From: a virus
DNA length: 17,862 nucleotides
Virus genome (UHGV): UHGV-0140088
Direction: 5' to 3' (one strand)
Positions 1 to 17,304 of the stretch are shown here, piece by piece. Below the pieces are notes generated by a model, which was not told the DNA's origin, ran no database searches, and was given only the letters and a program-made list of their open reading frames with translations. Every line of letters begins with the position of its first letter. Position 1 is the stretch's first letter. A program made the translations under genes and the position numbers.

Positions 1-851
1 AGTGGGAATATGAATTCAAAGGCAACCGTGCTGAATCTCAAGGTTCTTCCAAAGACAAAACCCGTCTTGCATTTGCAGGCCTGAAATTTGGTGATTACGG
101 CTCAATCGATTACGGCCGTAACTACGGTGTAGCATACGACATCGGTGCGTGGACTGACGTTCTGCCAGAATTCGGTGGTGATACCTGGACCCAAACAGAT
201 GTGTTCATGACTGGTCGCACTACTGGTGTTGCAACTTATCGTAACAACGACTTCTTTGGTCTGGTCGATGGCCTGAACTTTGCTGCTCAGTATCAGGGTA
301 AAAATGACCGCACTGACGTAACTGAAGCCAATGGTGATGGTTTCGGTTTCTCCACTACTTATGAGTATGAAGGATTCGGCGTGGGTGCAACCTATGCTAA
401 ATCAGATCGCACTGACGGTCAGGTCGCCTATGGTAAGAGCAAATTCAATGCCTCCGGCAAAAATGCGGAAGTATGGGCTGCAGGCCTGAAATATGATGCG
501 AACAATATCTATCTGGCTACCACATATTCTGAAACTCAGAATATGACCGTTTTTGGTAATAACCATATTGCAAACAAAGCACAAAACTTTGAAGCAGTAG
601 CACAATATCAGTTTGACTTCGGTCTGCGTCCATCTGTTGCTTACCTTCAGTCAAAAGGTAAAGACCTTGGTGTTCATGGTGACCGAGACTTAGTCAAGTA
701 TGTCGATGTCGGTGCTACTTACTACTTTAATAAAAACATGTCCACTTTTGTTGATTACAAAATCAACTTAATTGACGATAGTAAGTTTACCAAAACAGCT
801 GGTATTGATACCGACGACATCGTCGCTGTAGGTCTGGTTTATCAGTTCTAA
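1..851 (+). CDS. OmpC/NmpC-family general porin, 5'-truncated by the window edge; prophage-borne
   Basis: Open frame runs from position 3 to the stop at 849-851. Translation is beta-barrel porin-like with alternating aromatic/Gly-rich strands and the C-terminal ...VGLVYQF ending typical of enterobacterial porins. It lies directly beyond Q on the opposite strand, as nmpC does in DLP12. Confidence 0.85.
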
Positions 852-868
852 TCTGACTTACGAAAAAG

Positions 869-902
869 ATATGTTGCGGGAGGCTTTGCCTCCGCAACAT
901 AT
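869..902 (-). terminator. Long near-perfect hairpin with a T-tract on the minus-strand side; candidate tR'-like terminator for transcripts from the Q region
   Basis: Inverted repeat atatgttgcgggaggc / gcctccgcaacatat with one bulged G. On the minus strand the stem is followed by CTTTTTCG. Confidence 0.45.
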
Positions 903-989
903 AAGTGGAGCCCTCAAGCCACTTCCTTTAGAAGCACTACCTTGCTTCTTACTATATAAACCTTCTGTTATATATTACCCTTTATTTTG

Positions 990-1014
990 GGGGCGTTTCC
1001 ACGCCCCATTTTTA
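990..1014 (+). terminator. Rho-independent terminator downstream of the porin gene
   Basis: 7-bp GC-rich stem (ggggcgt/acgcccc) with 4-nt loop ttcc, followed by ATTTTT on the plus strand. Confidence 0.7.
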
Positions 1015-1039
1015 ATAACTTTTAGTAAACAATTGCATA

Positions 1040-1423
1040 TCAATTAGAATTATTAGCAACGATATCCATATCTAACCGGATATCTAATGCCATTAACATC
1101 CCTTCAATTATGCCCTCAGCCTTCTGTAACCTTTTCCCGATATAACCATCCGAGCAGCAATGCTTACTTGCCAGTGACATGAATGTCATACCACATACAT
1201 AATAATCTACTAATAAATCGTGTAAATCGCTGTTGTTCTTTTTCAGACGGGCCATGCACCCGCAAATGATCATCGCGTCATCGTCACAACATTGCGGGCG
1301 AGATTTTACTTTTGAAGGAATTAATCCCTTAAAACCGGCGGCAATGGACGACCAGGTCACATCTTCATGATTATTAGCCGCCCACGCACCCCAACGCTCA
1401 AGAACCATCTGAATATCACGCAT
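1040..1423 (-). CDS. Q: Late-gene antiterminator Q (QuuD/phage-82-type)
   Basis: 127-aa product starting [18 protein letters not shown] with a Cys-rich central region ([12 protein letters not shown]...HCC), which I recall as the DLP12 QuuD-type Q sequence. ATG at 1423 has GGAG 7 nt upstream; the track start at 1438 is a TTG extension. Confidence 0.8.
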
Positions 1424-1645
1424 CAACTTACTCCACAAAAATCAGACCAGAACGCCAATTACAAGCAAAAATCAACAAAACAGTATTAGTTGATTGTTAT
1501 CTCTGACTTCATACTCCTGTTCCTGTCAGGGTTTTGGCGTAATTCTTCAGTATTCGGTAATCGGTCAAAACAGAACCGAGGAAACGATATAAGCGCAGAC
1601 GCCCCCAGCGGTGGCGAAGAAGTTCTGCCATATTAAACTCAAACA

Positions 1646-2008
1646 TCATTCATTCCCCATTTCGGTGATGGTCAGTTCCAGCCTCCCACCTTTGGTAACA
1701 GGCATCTTCACAACGCGGTAATCAACGACCTGAGCATCATCCAGCCAGAAACCTGCTTTAGTGAGTGCGTCAAAAGCGGCTTTTTGCAGATTATCCAGGT
1801 CACGGCGACGGCGATCCGGCATGTGGCACTCAATGCGGATTTTCACAGGCATAGCCAGGCCGATATCCAGCATTGCGTTTTTAATGATTCGGGCGACGTT
1901 ATCGCGGTATGCCTGCCCCTCTGCGCTGACGTGCGTGCGCCCGCGATTATGGCGGTAATAGCGATTATTGCTCGGAGGCCAGGGTAATGTGATGCTGTAG
2001 GTATTCAC
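1646..2008 (-). CDS. rusA: RusA Holliday-junction resolvase
   Basis: 120-aa product [23 protein letters not shown]... matches RusA as recalled. GTG start with a GAGGGGG RBS; the start overlaps the upstream remnant frame's stop (GTGA). Confidence 0.9.
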
Positions 2009-2133
2009 GCCTTAATAACCCCCTCTTTCAGCCACATAACCTGTGTTCTCGCCATACCTTCCAGCGCGCATTCTTTTGCATATGCAGCATCGACTTGCTT
2101 GGCATGCCCTTTACCGGCAATCTTCTGTATGCG
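2005..2133 (-). pseudogene. Truncated remnant of a ybcO-like (DUF1364) nin-region gene
   Basis: A second minus-strand frame encodes ...[32 protein letters not shown], ending in a GTGA overlap with rusA. This resembles only the C-terminal ~30 aa of DLP12 YbcO as I recall it. An in-frame TAG lies ~40 codons upstream and no intact N-terminal part is present. Confidence 0.3.
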
Positions 2134-3775: not shown

Positions 3776-5212
3776 TCAGAATCCTCCTTTCTTCTTGGAC
3801 TGCGGTTCCTCGCGTTCACGTCGGCGCATTTCAGCAGACTGTTGGTCTGTGTCATAAATAGCGCCATTTGCCTGAATGCAATACACCGTGCCGGTATTGC
3901 CATGACGATTGAGACGAAGGATTAGTTCGGTTTCACCAGGTGGAACACTGTCATCAAAAGCGCCTTCACGATGGATCCCAACCCAATAATCGCAATCCTG
4001 TTCAATCTGCCCTGTATCTCGTGAGTCACTTGGTAATGGGCGTTTATTGGTTCGGCTTTCCAGTGCGCGGTTAAGCTGCGTCAGAAGCACAACAACGCAA
4101 TCAAGCTCTTTGGCAAGGTTCTTCAGTCCTTTGGTGATCATGCCGTAAGCAAGGTCGTTGCGATCGGCCTTCTCAGCGGTCATTAGTGTCAGGTAATCGA
4201 CCAGAATCATGCCAACACATCCTTTTTCTCGCTTGATTCGACGGCTTTCGCTGACGATTTGAGCCAGAGATAATCCCGGCGTGTCGTCGATGTAAAGCAT
4301 GTCGATTTCACTCAAGCGATTAGCTGTTTCGATCGCCCTGTTGAAGTCACCATCGTAATCACCCTGATAGCCGTCATCAGCGTCATTTGTCGCCGGAAGG
4401 TAAAAAATATTCGGGTTAACACCAGACTTCTGCCCTACCAGTTTTTCCAGTATCTGATCACCTGGCATTTCAAGGCTGAACATCAAAGCGGGCTTTTTCT
4501 CATGCACTGCGCAATTGATTGCCATCTGGCTGTATAGCGTCGTTTTCCCCATCTTAGGGCGAGCGCCAATGACAAACAGAGAGCCTTTCACCAGGCCTTT
4601 CGGTGACAGCATCCTGTCCAGCGATGGGATCCCTGTGCTCATTCCTCGTTGTTCGCCTGACGGATCAAATCGCTTCTCAAGGTCGCTAACCCAGTCTTCC
4701 ATGACCTCACCAAATGAGCGAAGGCCGCGACGCGATCCGGTTTTTGCATGGTCTGTCAGTTGCGTGAAAATCGCCTGAATAGCTTCGTACTTCTGCGTTG
4801 CAGTCATTCCGTTGCGGGAATAGAGCAATTCCGTCGCTTCAGTCATGCGGTTGATGGCGTAGCGTTCCATTGCGGTTTCACGAACCTGCATTGCATAGGC
4901 AACGATGTTTGCTGCGCTTGGCGTGTTCTTTGCGATCTCAGCGATATAAGCAAAACCGCCAACAGACGCCGTTAACGATTTACGCTCCAGTTCATCGAAA
5001 AGCGTCAGGCCATCTACTGGCTTTTGCTCCCGGTGCATTCTGGTTATCTCTTCGAAAAGGATTTTGTGTGGTCGGCTGTAAAATGAATCAGGCTTCAGCA
5101 TCGCCAGAACTTTCTGGACGCGCTCACTGCTGTCATCATCCAGAAGCAATCCACCAATCACCGCCTGCTCTGCCTCGATGCTATGGGGCGGCGCATAAAA
5201 ATTATCGGTCAT
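3776..5212 (-). CDS. Replicative DNA helicase, DnaB family (P22 gene 12-like)
   Basis: 478 aa from the ATG at 5212 (GAGGGTG RBS; 7 bp after the O stop). Walker A GARPKMGKT, Walker B-like ILVDYLTLM, and an N-terminal DnaB-like domain (IEAEQAVIGGLLLD). Confidence 0.9.
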   Translation of the reverse strand: MTDNFYAPPHSIEAEQAVIGGLLLDDDSSERVQKVLAMLKPDSFYSRPHKILFEEITRMHREQKPVDGLTLFDELERKSLTASVGGFAYIAEIAKNTPSAANIVAYAMQVRETAMERYAINRMTEATELLYSRNGMTATQKYEAIQAIFTQLTDHAKTGSRRGLRSFGEVMEDWVSDLEKRFDPSGEQRGMSTGIPSLDRMLSPKGLVKGSLFVIGARPKMGKTTLYSQMAINCAVHEKKPALMFSLEMPGDQILEKLVGQKSGVNPNIFYLPATNDADDGYQGDYDGDFNRAIETANRLSEIDMLYIDDTPGLSLAQIVSESRRIKREKGCVGMILVDYLTLMTAEKADRNDLAYGMITKGLKNLAKELDCVVVLLTQLNRALESRTNKRPLPSDSRDTGQIEQDCDYWVGIHREGAFDDSVPPGETELILRLNRHGNTGTVYCIQANGAIYDTDQQSAEMRRREREEPQSKKKGGF

Positions 5213-17228: not shown

Positions 17229-17304
17229 TGGTGCCGATAATAGGAGTCGAACCTACGACCTTCGCATTACGAATGCGCTGCTCTACCAACTGAGCTATAT
17301 CGGC
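17229..17304 (-). tRNA. thrW: tRNA-Thr (anticodon CGU)
   Basis: Minus-strand 76-nt sequence GCCGATATAGCTCAGTTGGTAGAGCAGCGCATTCGTAATGCGAAGGTCGTAGGTTCGACTCCTATTATCGGCACCA: 7-bp acceptor stem, D-arm GCTC/GAGC, anticodon CGT at positions 34-36, T-loop TTCGACT, CCA end. Confidence 0.9.

Follow-up and report, generated by a model that had tools for sequence, protein, structure and literature searches.

The first 1039 positions of the window, which is the whole 17,862-nucleotide stretch of the virus genome UHGV-0140088 analysed here, very probably (probability about 0.85) represent the 3' half of a lysogenic-conversion moron that is already known. The unit is composed of an Lc/NmpC-type porin gene followed by an IpeX 3'UTR of about 167 nt, and appears to be inserted between the antiterminator gene Q and the late cassette belonging to Q. 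This reading was adopted because of the position of the cassette, the linkage of the spacer to the porin and the presence of the hairpins in phage P7 without Q. The porin-beside-Q arrangement has been familiar since the work on PA-2 lc and DLP12 nmpC, and the IpeX RNA since 2006; the observation as originally posed is ordinary.

Table 1. Coordinates of the features at the left end of the window
Feature	Position	Strand	Remarks
Lc/NmpC-type (OmpC-family) porin, 3' part	1..851	+	282 codons plus stop, truncated by the window edge
Porin 3'UTR / IpeX homologue	852..1018	+	four hairpins, AU-rich single-stranded stretch, terminator
SL1 read on the minus strand, with CUUUUUCG	862..902	-	-21.9 kcal/mol, z -6.7
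SL1 (the originally proposed tR' hairpin)	869..902	+	first hairpin of the 3'UTR RNA
SL2, invariant apical loop CCCUCA (911-916)	903..924	+	top two pairs mismatched in the window allele
SL3 (AGAAGCA/UGCUUCU)	930..949	+	hairpin
Candidate seed	959..987	+	invariant, weakly structured; predicted complementarity to host porin translation start regions
Rho-independent terminator of porin/IpeX transcript	990..1013	+	preceded by U-rich stretch 981-988
Q/porin-cargo junction	1040..1063	-	VT2-Sakai Q homology ends at alignment column 400, position 1063
Q antiterminator, QuuD/Q933W type, 127 aa	1040..1423	-	PF06530, E 7e-54

The porin cargo and its genomic setting

The porin frame was found open at 3-851 on the plus strand, with TAA at 849-851 and zero internal stops; the window edge is its sole truncation and leaves the N-terminal 78 codons outside. 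The profile search matched it to Pfam Porin_1 with E 4e-125 over profile positions 51-337 of 337. The protein is 88% identical in amino acids to Lc of phage PA-2, from which it departs by indels and clustered substitutions in only a few short stretches. The general-porin profile match and this close identity place it among the Lc/NmpC phage porins. The copy of E. coli Nissle 1917 is annotated as an intact protein of 360 aa and that of phage ev017 is likewise annotated intact. The prophage-borne OmpC/NmpC-type porin opposite Q (minus strand, 1423-1040) that had been predicted is real, and its interpretation as lysogenic-conversion cargo convergent with Q is supported and long known. A first scan of IMG/VR with the porin as query returned nothing but 100%-identical copies. 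A porin match labelled 'Salmonella phage' was dismissed, its context being that of chromosomal ompN.

Over positions 1-1500 the window matches, at 100% identity, prophages carried by E. coli Nissle 1917, ATCC 25922 and DSM 30083, as well as the phage genomes deposited as ev017 and ev207. The left flank lies outside the window, and the positions of the porin start, pR' and the holin gene were inferred from these identical sequences. Their gene order is Q (-), porin (+) and holin/endolysin/spanin (-), the lysis genes being read in Nissle and ev017, so that the porin of this lambdoid prophage is flanked by Q and the lysis genes and is read from the other strand. DLP12 quuD-nmpC-essD and PA-2 lc have the matching order. 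Like the window locus, PA-2 lc-ipeX and nmpC-ipeX of the cryptic K-12 prophage DLP12 (qsr') combine Q, a convergent porin, an S21-type holin, an endolysin and a spanin, with the same terminator and the same distance of 188-189 bp between the porin and Q stop codons. The differences from PA-2 and DLP12 are a C-to-G change which shifts the bulge of SL1, the lack of the top two pairs of SL2, and, from about 2500 rightwards, a prophage backbone of different mosaic make-up with thrW as its integration site. K-12 has IS5, whereas the window locus is without IS5 in the part seen.

The spacer between porin and Q occurs in 36 phage records, each of which also has the porin, while the Q family is found in 420 records. 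It was detected in 2510 of 5426 complete E. coli genomes (~46%), and it remains with the porin where Q is deleted. Judged by these occurrences, the spacer travels with the porin and not with Q. The unit has the marks of a phage moron, namely its own promoter and terminator, absence from the same position in relatives and conserved phage flanks; the PA-2 record annotates a promoter region with CRP sites for the porin. The complete cargo would span about 1.65 kb, from the porin promoter through the gene and IpeX to the terminator, and would be read from the other strand in the space between a QuuD/Q933W-type Q and the late cassette.

The spacer as an IpeX RNA locus

The spacer is 93.6% identical over 200 nt to the region downstream of PA-2 lc and to the K-12 DLP12 ipeX locus, and its plus strand folds with a z score of -6.2. 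Its position is that of IpeX, on the porin strand between the stop codon (849-851) and the terminator (990-1013), with a length of about 167 nt. The covariance model gave the window 189 bits, the window being one of the nine sequences from which the model was built, and it matched the 3'UTR of P7 nmpC with E about 1e-16. By homology and position, 852-1018 is the IpeX RNA locus on the plus strand, which the original prediction had overlooked. Nothing at or near threshold was obtained from Rfam, the weak chance matches being those of sau-19 to the hairpin (E 0.39) and of Trp_leader to the terminator upstream of essD (E 0.68); ipeX is unannotated in the K-12 RefSeq record. According to the literature on K-12 and PA-2, IpeX is processed from the porin mRNA, its expression lowers OmpC and OmpF, it is Hfq-independent, and its effect on ompC is not explained by sequence complementarity alone. 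Because SL2 is without its top two pairs in the window allele, IpeX activity is only assumed for that allele.

The terminator consists of a 7-bp stem at 990-1007 (GGGGCGT/ACGCCCC, 6 G-C pairs) with a loop of 4 and the tail ATTTTT, at -13.8 kcal/mol. It has the features of an intrinsic terminator on the plus strand, and its stem and tail are invariant among ten aligned variants, the loop alone varying. Scan and fold confirmed at 990-1013 the porin terminator which had been predicted at 990-1014. SL1 has perfect arms of 11 nt, extendable to 15 bp with one bulge, and a stability of about -22 kcal/mol; the z score of its fold is -6.7 on the minus strand and -4.3 on the plus strand. Changes in SL1 among the lambdoid variants are confined to the loop and the bulge.

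The nmpC locus of the P1-like phage P7 (also phi456 and JL22) provided a diverged comparison, with a porin 79% identical in amino acids. Its 3'UTR resembles that of the window in SL1-SL2-SL3, the AU-rich stretch, the terminator, the CCCUCA loop and the segment complementary to ompF and ompC, and it has a terminator hairpin with a T7 tract at the terminator position. Unlike the window, it has an unrelated genomic context with ssb as neighbour and no Q gene, and a 19-nt insertion before the terminator. P7 keeps SL1-SL3, and 10 of 39 pairs show compensatory changes on both sides (5 in SL1, 2 in SL2 and 3 in SL3). The shuffle control gave 2.2 +/- 1.3 such changes, with 10 reached in 0 of 500 shuffles, and slid partners gave 0-2. 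Essentially a single deep split, lambdoid against P1-like, underlies this covariation, and the alignment was itself fitted to the model. The covariation alone does not distinguish the two strands; the G.U test leans weakly to the plus strand, with 6 pair positions against 3. Among the lambdoid variants only, 0 compensatory pairs were found because the sequences are too similar.

Two readings of the spacer other than IpeX were considered. It may merely be a stabilising 3'UTR with a terminator, the trans function of IpeX having been lost or never present in the window allele. The mismatches at the top of SL2 and the shifted bulge of SL1 are in line with this, but spacer identity to the other alleles, among them that of the characterised K-12/PA-2 locus, amounts to 91.5-95%, while the adjacent porin coding part is only 78-83% identical in 5 of 7 comparisons. 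The proposed seed is invariant over 958-990 and the ompC/ompF complementarity is kept, which makes this reading improbable. Coding of a small protein, by the 58-aa ORF at 871-1047 (+) or by the minus-strand 'ORF1' of the PA-2 record, has a negligible likelihood. Such ORFs exist mechanically, but they were rejected because single-base indels among close variants (alignment columns 140 and 191) break the frame; the variation tracks RNA helices and not codons.

Position of the late promoter

Q of the window is 81% identical to Q of the Stx phages 933W and VT2-Sakai (for VT2-Sakai over residues 1-120) and is a distant relative of the Q21 structures 6p18 and 6jnx. The last 24 codons of the Stx-phage Q are replaced by 7 in the window, and homology to the 3' end of the Q933W type is lacking in these 7 codons and in all sequence left of them. 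According to this alignment, the porin cargo has its right edge at 1040-1063. In the late cassette of the QuuD/Q933W-type Q family, the palindrome TTTACGwwCGTAAA covers the -35 and is followed by a TATnnT -10, the initial transcribed element TAAGAGTGGT and a terminator. In GTDB genomes of several genera, TTTACGwwCGTAAA was found downstream of Q in 27 of 30 loci. Its distance from the Q stop is -12 to +140 nt in 24 of these 27; in the remaining 3 a reverse-strand cargo intervenes, either the porin with IS5 or other genes. Where relatives lack the porin, pR' follows Q directly, and in C. braakii other reverse-strand genes fill the slot between Q and pR'.

The start of pR' beside Q has been mapped by dRNA-seq in the Stx phages of the Sakai strain (PMC7547250). 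The annotated Sakai pR', qut and terminator align with positions 4403-4319 of the Nissle locus L002, upstream of essD. This segment lies about 140 nt upstream of essD, contains the terminator AAACCCGCCGTCGAGCGGGTTTTT and is identical in ev017. A late unit occurring once per phage upstream of the lysis genes was therefore found, but outside the window; by homology and comparative position, the pR' cassette sits between the porin start and the holin gene. The TTTACG -35, the TATnnT -10, TAAGAGTGGTTAC and the terminator of the Q933W-type Stx phages (pR', pause site and tR'; StxS RNA) are conserved in the relatives of the window prophage. The cassette overlaps the end of Q in the Stx phages, whereas in the window prophage the reverse-strand porin cargo separates the two. 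Unlike in the Stx phages, the first terminator hairpin stands alone before the holin gene in the relatives. With the cassette beyond the porin, Q-modified transcription would therefore start downstream of the porin gene and never cross it. During lytic growth Q would act in trans at the distant pR', and late transcription would head away from the porin gene.

The original prediction had placed a possible minus-strand PR' in 903-1039, with 869-902 as tR' of a short leader and Q-dependent antisense read-through across the porin, which would take it to the lysis genes. It corresponds to the pR' - 6S RNA - tR' arrangement of lambda, a short terminated leader downstream of Q. The lambda unit goes with another family of Q, and nothing of this kind is present at 852-1039. 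Q proteins usually act at a promoter just past their own gene, and the two minus-strand -10-like hexamers that were named do exist: TAATAT (977-972), with a 4/6 match at -35, and TATAGT (956-951), with a 3/6 match. They are at chance level (2 such sites observed against 1.8 expected; at least 2 in 53% of shuffles in the relaxed scan), their -35 partners are poor, and one of these lies inside the terminator hairpin. The sigma-70 scan of 852-1039 gave zero promoter-like sites on both strands, and the alignment gave no homology of the Sakai late cassette to this segment. The motifs TTTACGwwCGTAAA, TATnnT and TAAGAGTGGT are absent from it and have chance-level matches only (<=3 mismatches) elsewhere in the window. 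The proposed promoter is refuted by the absence of a promoter-like site and the presence of the family cassette elsewhere, and the antisense read-through by the cassette homologue beyond the porin start. The role of 869-902 as tR' falls as well, the hairpin being part of a porin 3'UTR and kept in P7, which lacks Q. As a whole, the late-leader model is highly improbable.

The large hairpin with a minus-strand T-tract is real, CUUUUUCG following the stable stem on that strand, and SL1 could serve in addition as a minus-strand intrinsic terminator which ends an early, pR-derived transcript after the convergent Q gene. An extra rrnB terminator placed in the K-12 spacer had no effect, from which the authors infer that native terminators block transcription from the quuD side (PMC11677980). 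The T-tract is however just 5 T here and shorter still, at 4 or 3 T, in half of the 10 lambdoid variants; it is weak beside SL1 of P7 though the hairpin is kept, and the terminator scan made no call at minus-strand 902-862. The E. coli 3'-end mapping supplements (PMC7815308) hold no ipeX, quuD, nmpC or essD entries. Such a dual use of SL1 is unlikely on balance. If true, the porin gene would be shielded from convergent transcription whenever N-type antitermination is absent, and the 3' tail of the Q mRNA would be antisense to IpeX.

Complementarity to ompC and ompF and its implications

The predicted pairing of the IpeX homologue with the host porin mRNAs was assessed by contiguous-run statistics and opening-energy corrections, since whole-RNA duplexfold gives inflated long duplexes. 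Positions 959-973 are predicted to pair with ompC -21..-7 and 979-987 with ompC -31..-23 (Shine-Dalgarno region), and 967-982 with ompF -14..+1 (Shine-Dalgarno and start codon region). The ompC pairing comprises 15 contiguous bp (1 G.U) plus 9 bp, with a hybrid energy of -24.8 kcal/mol, or -15.3 after opening costs. Among 5000 shuffles, 7 reached a run of at least 15; judged from 445 kb of real sequence, the expectation for each target is 0.0027. The stretch of about 958-990 is invariant across the 10 variants, and 5326 of the 5371 genomes with a match have the ompC site region at 99% identity or more. The diverged P7 homologue retains the complementarity to both ompC and ompF, with 17 contiguous pairs to ompF. 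No comparable match to the seed was found in the start region of the phage porin itself.

These matches suggest, tentatively and at somewhat below even odds, that IpeX may act as an ordinary antisense sRNA, 959-987 pairing with the ompC Shine-Dalgarno region and 967-982 with the Shine-Dalgarno and start region of ompF. The 2006 study of IpeX reportedly found no complementarity. The sRNAs MicC (ompC) and MicF (ompF) target the Shine-Dalgarno/start region and have a U-rich stretch before the terminator, and IpeX has such a stretch too and would presumably have the same kind of target; unlike these chromosomal RNAs, it is phage-borne and derived from a 3'UTR. In a lysogen, the porin promoter would drive the porin mRNA and the 3'UTR would be released as IpeX, which would reduce host OmpC and OmpF, the phage porin taking their place.

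For annotation, the late promoter of the QuuD/Q933W Q family can sit about 1.7-2.9 kb from Q. The rule that pR' lies just after Q is unsafe because reverse-strand cargo can displace it, and TTTACGwwCGTAAA followed by TAAGAGTGGT is a practical marker for a displaced late promoter. The slot between Q and pR' is a recurrent cargo site. If functional, the ompC/ompF complementarity would offer a simple, testable mechanism for exchanging the host porins for the phage porin, an exchange that is relevant to the use of phage receptors and to the porin-dependent entry of antibiotics.

Organisation of the porin-Q interval

The 188-bp spacer between the porin gene and the gene of the Q antiterminator was found to be 93.6% identical to the sequence 3' of PA-2 lc and K-12 nmpC, and by this homology was identified as the ipeX locus. 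Its product, the IpeX sRNA, is described in PMC12197685, PMC5069750 and PMC8065619 as lowering OmpC and OmpF. The spacer is linked to the porin rather than to Q. It occurred in 36 phage records, with the porin present in 36/36 (the Q family occurs in 420 records), and it remains beside the porin in a remnant devoid of Q. Across seven other lambdoid alleles it was 91.5-95% identical to the window, and the neighbouring 3' part of the porin gene was just 78-83% identical in five of the same seven comparisons. It was present in 2510 of 5426 complete E. coli genomes, and about 167 nt separate the porin stop from the end of the T-run in the window. The remnant (E. coli Z1323HEC0462, locus L038, 1924-3200) is degraded and DLP12-like and adjoins ybcM, ybcL and emrE; the minus-strand T-tract beside the hairpin SL1 has decayed there to TTT.

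The features of the locus are summarized in the table. An OmpC/NmpC-type porin gene opposite Q and a plus-strand porin terminator at ~990-1014 were both found as predicted originally. The porin frame aligned to positions 51-337 of the 337-position general porin profile (E 4e-125) and was 88% identical to PA-2 Lc, the gaps and clustered substitutions being confined to a few short segments. YlcG and RusA are encoded upstream of Q, and window 2005-2094 (-), just upstream of rusA, is annotated in the Nissle record as an incomplete DUF1364 gene fragment.

Features of the porin-Q locus and of the related late cassette (window coordinates unless stated otherwise)
Feature	Position	Strand	Details
Porin gene, 3' part	3-851	+	uninterrupted 282-codon frame, TAA at 849-851; truncated solely by the window edge
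Inverted repeat (hairpin)	869-902	both	15 bp, one bulge, ~-22 kcal/mol, much more stable than shuffled sequence on both strands
SL1	869-902	+	plus-strand RNA fold
SL2	903-924	+	apical loop CCCUCA
SL3	930-949	+	plus-strand RNA fold; a weak AU helix lies between it and the terminator
Terminator-like site	stem 990-1007	+	ATTTTT directly after the stem
Q antiterminator	1423-1040	-	127 aa, PF06530, E 7e-54
Nissle late cassette	L002 (Nissle 1917 prophage) 4403-4319	-	TTTACG, 16 nt, TATGCT, GTTAAGAGTGGTTAC, terminator AAACCCGCCGTCGAGCGGGTTTTT

Window 1-1500 was 100% identical to a prophage found in, among many others, E. coli Nissle 1917, ATCC 25922 and DSM 30083, as well as to two phage genomes on deposit, ev017 and ev207. 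The left flank, beyond position 1, was deduced from these identical sequences, in which the gene order is Q(-), 188 bp, porin(+), ~590 bp and holin/endolysin/spanin(-). The same arrangement is found in the cryptic prophage DLP12 of K-12 (quuD, nmpC, essD, rrrD and rzpD, nmpC being IS5-interrupted in K-12) and in phage PA-2, which is arranged as the Nissle-type prophage and whose lc record matches too. The locus is a member of the already known PA-2 lc/DLP12 nmpC-ipeX family with a QuuD/Q933W-type Q.

The remainder of the window covers the early half of a lambdoid prophage of mosaic make-up, inserted at tRNA-Thr beside proA. The tRNA-Thr (CGU) at 17229-17304 (-) adjoins the integrase gene and proA, which places the prophage at the thrW attachment site with the window ending in host DNA. 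A mosaic junction was observed at ~2100-2520, with identity to the Nissle-type prophage on its left and a match to a different prophage (replication module with a DnaB-like helicase) on its right, as in E. coli strain E1. None of the complete E. coli genomes in the collection searched carried at least 80% of the window in a single piece.

Position of the late promoter

The late promoter pR' had been suggested to lie on the minus strand within 903-1039. The -10-like hexamers TAATAT and TATAGT do exist there, with poor -35 partners and at the frequency of shuffled sequence (2 observed, 1.8 expected), and a standard promoter scan returned no site within 852-1039 on either strand. The late cassette of the family is also absent from this interval; its motifs gave 0 matches in 852-1039 and chance-level matches, with 2-3 mismatches, in the rest of the window.

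Q was 81-84% identical over residues 1-120 to Q of the Stx phages 933W and VT2-Sakai, and is a distant relative of Q21, for which structures are solved. The VT2-Sakai record annotates pR' (-35 TTTACG, -10 TATCAT) with its start within the last Q codons, a putative qut site and a terminator. In the Stx phages of the Sakai strain, dRNA-seq located the primary pR' start adjoining Q, with the leader terminator tR' 258 nt downstream (PMC7547250), which agrees with the annotated promoter and second annotated terminator of that record. The homology between the window and VT2-Sakai ends at window 1063, 7 codons short of the Q stop, and this alignment revealed no resemblance to the Sakai late cassette anywhere in 852-1039. 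The cassette aligns with the Nissle segment just upstream of the holin gene, a segment that is identical in phage ev017.

Thirty loci encoding the QuuD/Q933W family were fetched from one-genome-per-species bacterial genomes, and the palindrome TTTACG(TA/AT)CGTAAA was found downstream of Q in 27. In 24 of these 27 (Escherichia, Shigella, Trabulsiella, Citrobacter, Pantoea, Xenorhabdus, Providencia and Morganella) its distance from the Q stop ranges from -12 to +140 nt, most values being 4-29 nt. The three exceptions have opposite-strand cargo between Q and the palindrome, namely porin and IS5 in two loci (2856 nt) and, in Citrobacter braakii (2338 nt), three unrelated genes on the reverse strand. 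As the cassette aligns ahead of holin, is near Q in 24/27 loci and is absent from 852-1039, the late promoter of the phage is placed by homology beyond the porin gene as seen from Q. Transcription modified by Q would start there and head away from the porin, which contradicts the proposed Q-dependent antisense read-through.

The palindrome is invariant over the -35 in the late promoter regions of L002 (4403-4319, -), VT2-Sakai (L004, 1504-1586) and the Q-family loci L011-L035 (~3880-4010), with TAAGAGTG(G/A)T just past the -10. Both are kept from Escherichia through Xenorhabdus and Providencia and are candidates for a Q-binding element and a sigma-dependent pause element. The first hairpin and T-run of VT2-Sakai (L004 1564-1586, ~26-48 nt past the pR' start) resembles a strong terminator, whereas Term-seq in the StxS paper placed tR' at 258 nt (PMC7547250); the later terminator position compared was L004 1767-1795. 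Only the first of these hairpins is present ahead of the holin gene in porin phages.

Structure and predicted pairing of the 3'UTR RNA

The plus-strand spacer RNA folds with a z of -6.2. Among lambdoid variants nearly all substitutions in helix regions fell in loops or bulges or yielded G.U pairs, and compensatory changes were none. In phage P7 and other P1-like phages an nmpC homologue (79% aa) lies beside ssb, with no Q. The P7 3'UTR is diverged in sequence and has the same fold layout (z -7.3), and was matched by a covariance model built from the lambdoid variants (E ~1e-16). In the covariance-model alignment 10 of 39 pairs were changed on both sides between lambdoid and P7 sequences, a count from one deep evolutionary split with the alignment fitted to the model; shuffles gave 2.2 +/- 1.3 (0/500 reaching 10) and slid partners 0-2. 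The P1-like homologue supports the RNA structure, a point of some value. In these plasmid prophages (L045 667-1975 for P7, L127 and L128) the nmpC homologue and IpeX-like 3'UTR are convergent with ssb, and the P7 SL1 interior is also complementary to the lambdoid porin 5'UTR (18 pairs, 4 G.U).

The original prediction took the hairpin 869-902 as a possible tR'. Since P7, without Q, conserves it with the plus-strand T-run after the terminator and has no more than a weak minus-side T-tract at SL1, the hairpin is a conserved porin 3'UTR element and not a late-leader terminator; to the extent that sequence comparison can decide, the PR'/tR' reading of 869-1039 is refuted. An added role as minus-strand terminator for a transcript coming through Q appears rather unlikely. 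Such a transcript would meet a strong stem and then five U (CUUUUUCG directly follows the hairpin on this strand), and PMC11677980 states that a strong terminator added to the K-12 spacer had no effect, the authors inferring native terminators that block quuD-side transcription; however, half of the lambdoid variants have a T-run of just 4 or 3 T, and E. coli 3'-end mapping data (PMC7815308) list no ipeX, quuD, nmpC or essD ends.

The segment 958-990 was invariant in 10/10 aligned lambdoid variants, and about half of it is unpaired in the ensemble. Complementarity to K-12 ompC mRNA was seen for window 959-973 (AACCUUCUGUUAUAU), which matches positions -21 to -7 (AUAUAACAGAGGGUU) in 15 contiguous pairs (one G.U) that span the Shine-Dalgarno sequence, and 979-987 pairs with -31 to -23. 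The hybrid energy was -24.8 kcal/mol, or -15.3 after the opening cost of both RNAs. Runs of at least 15 arose in 7 of 5000 shuffles, and 445 kb of unrelated real sequence gave an expectation of 0.0027 per 66-nt target. With ompF (-14 to +1), window 967-982 forms 10+5 pairs; in P7 the homologous segment has an uninterrupted run of 17 pairs with ompF (4 G.U) and 11 Watson-Crick pairs across the ompC start codon. No comparable match was obtained with the start region of the phage porin itself. Among 5371 matching E. coli genomes, 5326 have the 90-nt ompC start region with the site at an identity of 99% or more. The 2006 IpeX abstract reportedly found no complementarity. The predicted ompC/ompF pairing is a testable lead of some value, not a discovery.

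Cargo insertion and its proposed consequences

Comparison of the loci indicates that the Q-pR' interval received, on the opposite strand, a moron of porin, IpeX and terminator, which replaced the last 24 Q codons by 7. The three unrelated genes in C. braakii suggest that the Q-pR' slot is a recurrent cargo insertion site; that slot (L017 3890-6228) holds reverse-strand genes of 345, 106 and 132 aa and no porin. In the window the last Q codons by the cargo junction at 1063 contain GATATCC/GGATATC as an inverted repeat and ATATCTAA x2 as a direct repeat (1061-1087). The displaced pR', as an annotation caveat, and the recurrent cargo slot are points of some value.

On induction, Q from the early transcript would work in trans on the pR' ahead of the holin gene, as homology and DLP12 work cited in PMC7918800 suggest. 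The terminator at 990-1013 would shield Q from porin transcription. In the lysogen, as the literature describes, the porin promoter would be active and the 3'UTR would yield IpeX; this RNA would lower OmpC and OmpF, plausibly through base pairing with the start regions of their mRNAs. OmpC is a phage receptor, with a known link to PA-2. The phage porin would then replace OmpC/OmpF, and OmpC-dependent phages would be left without their receptor.
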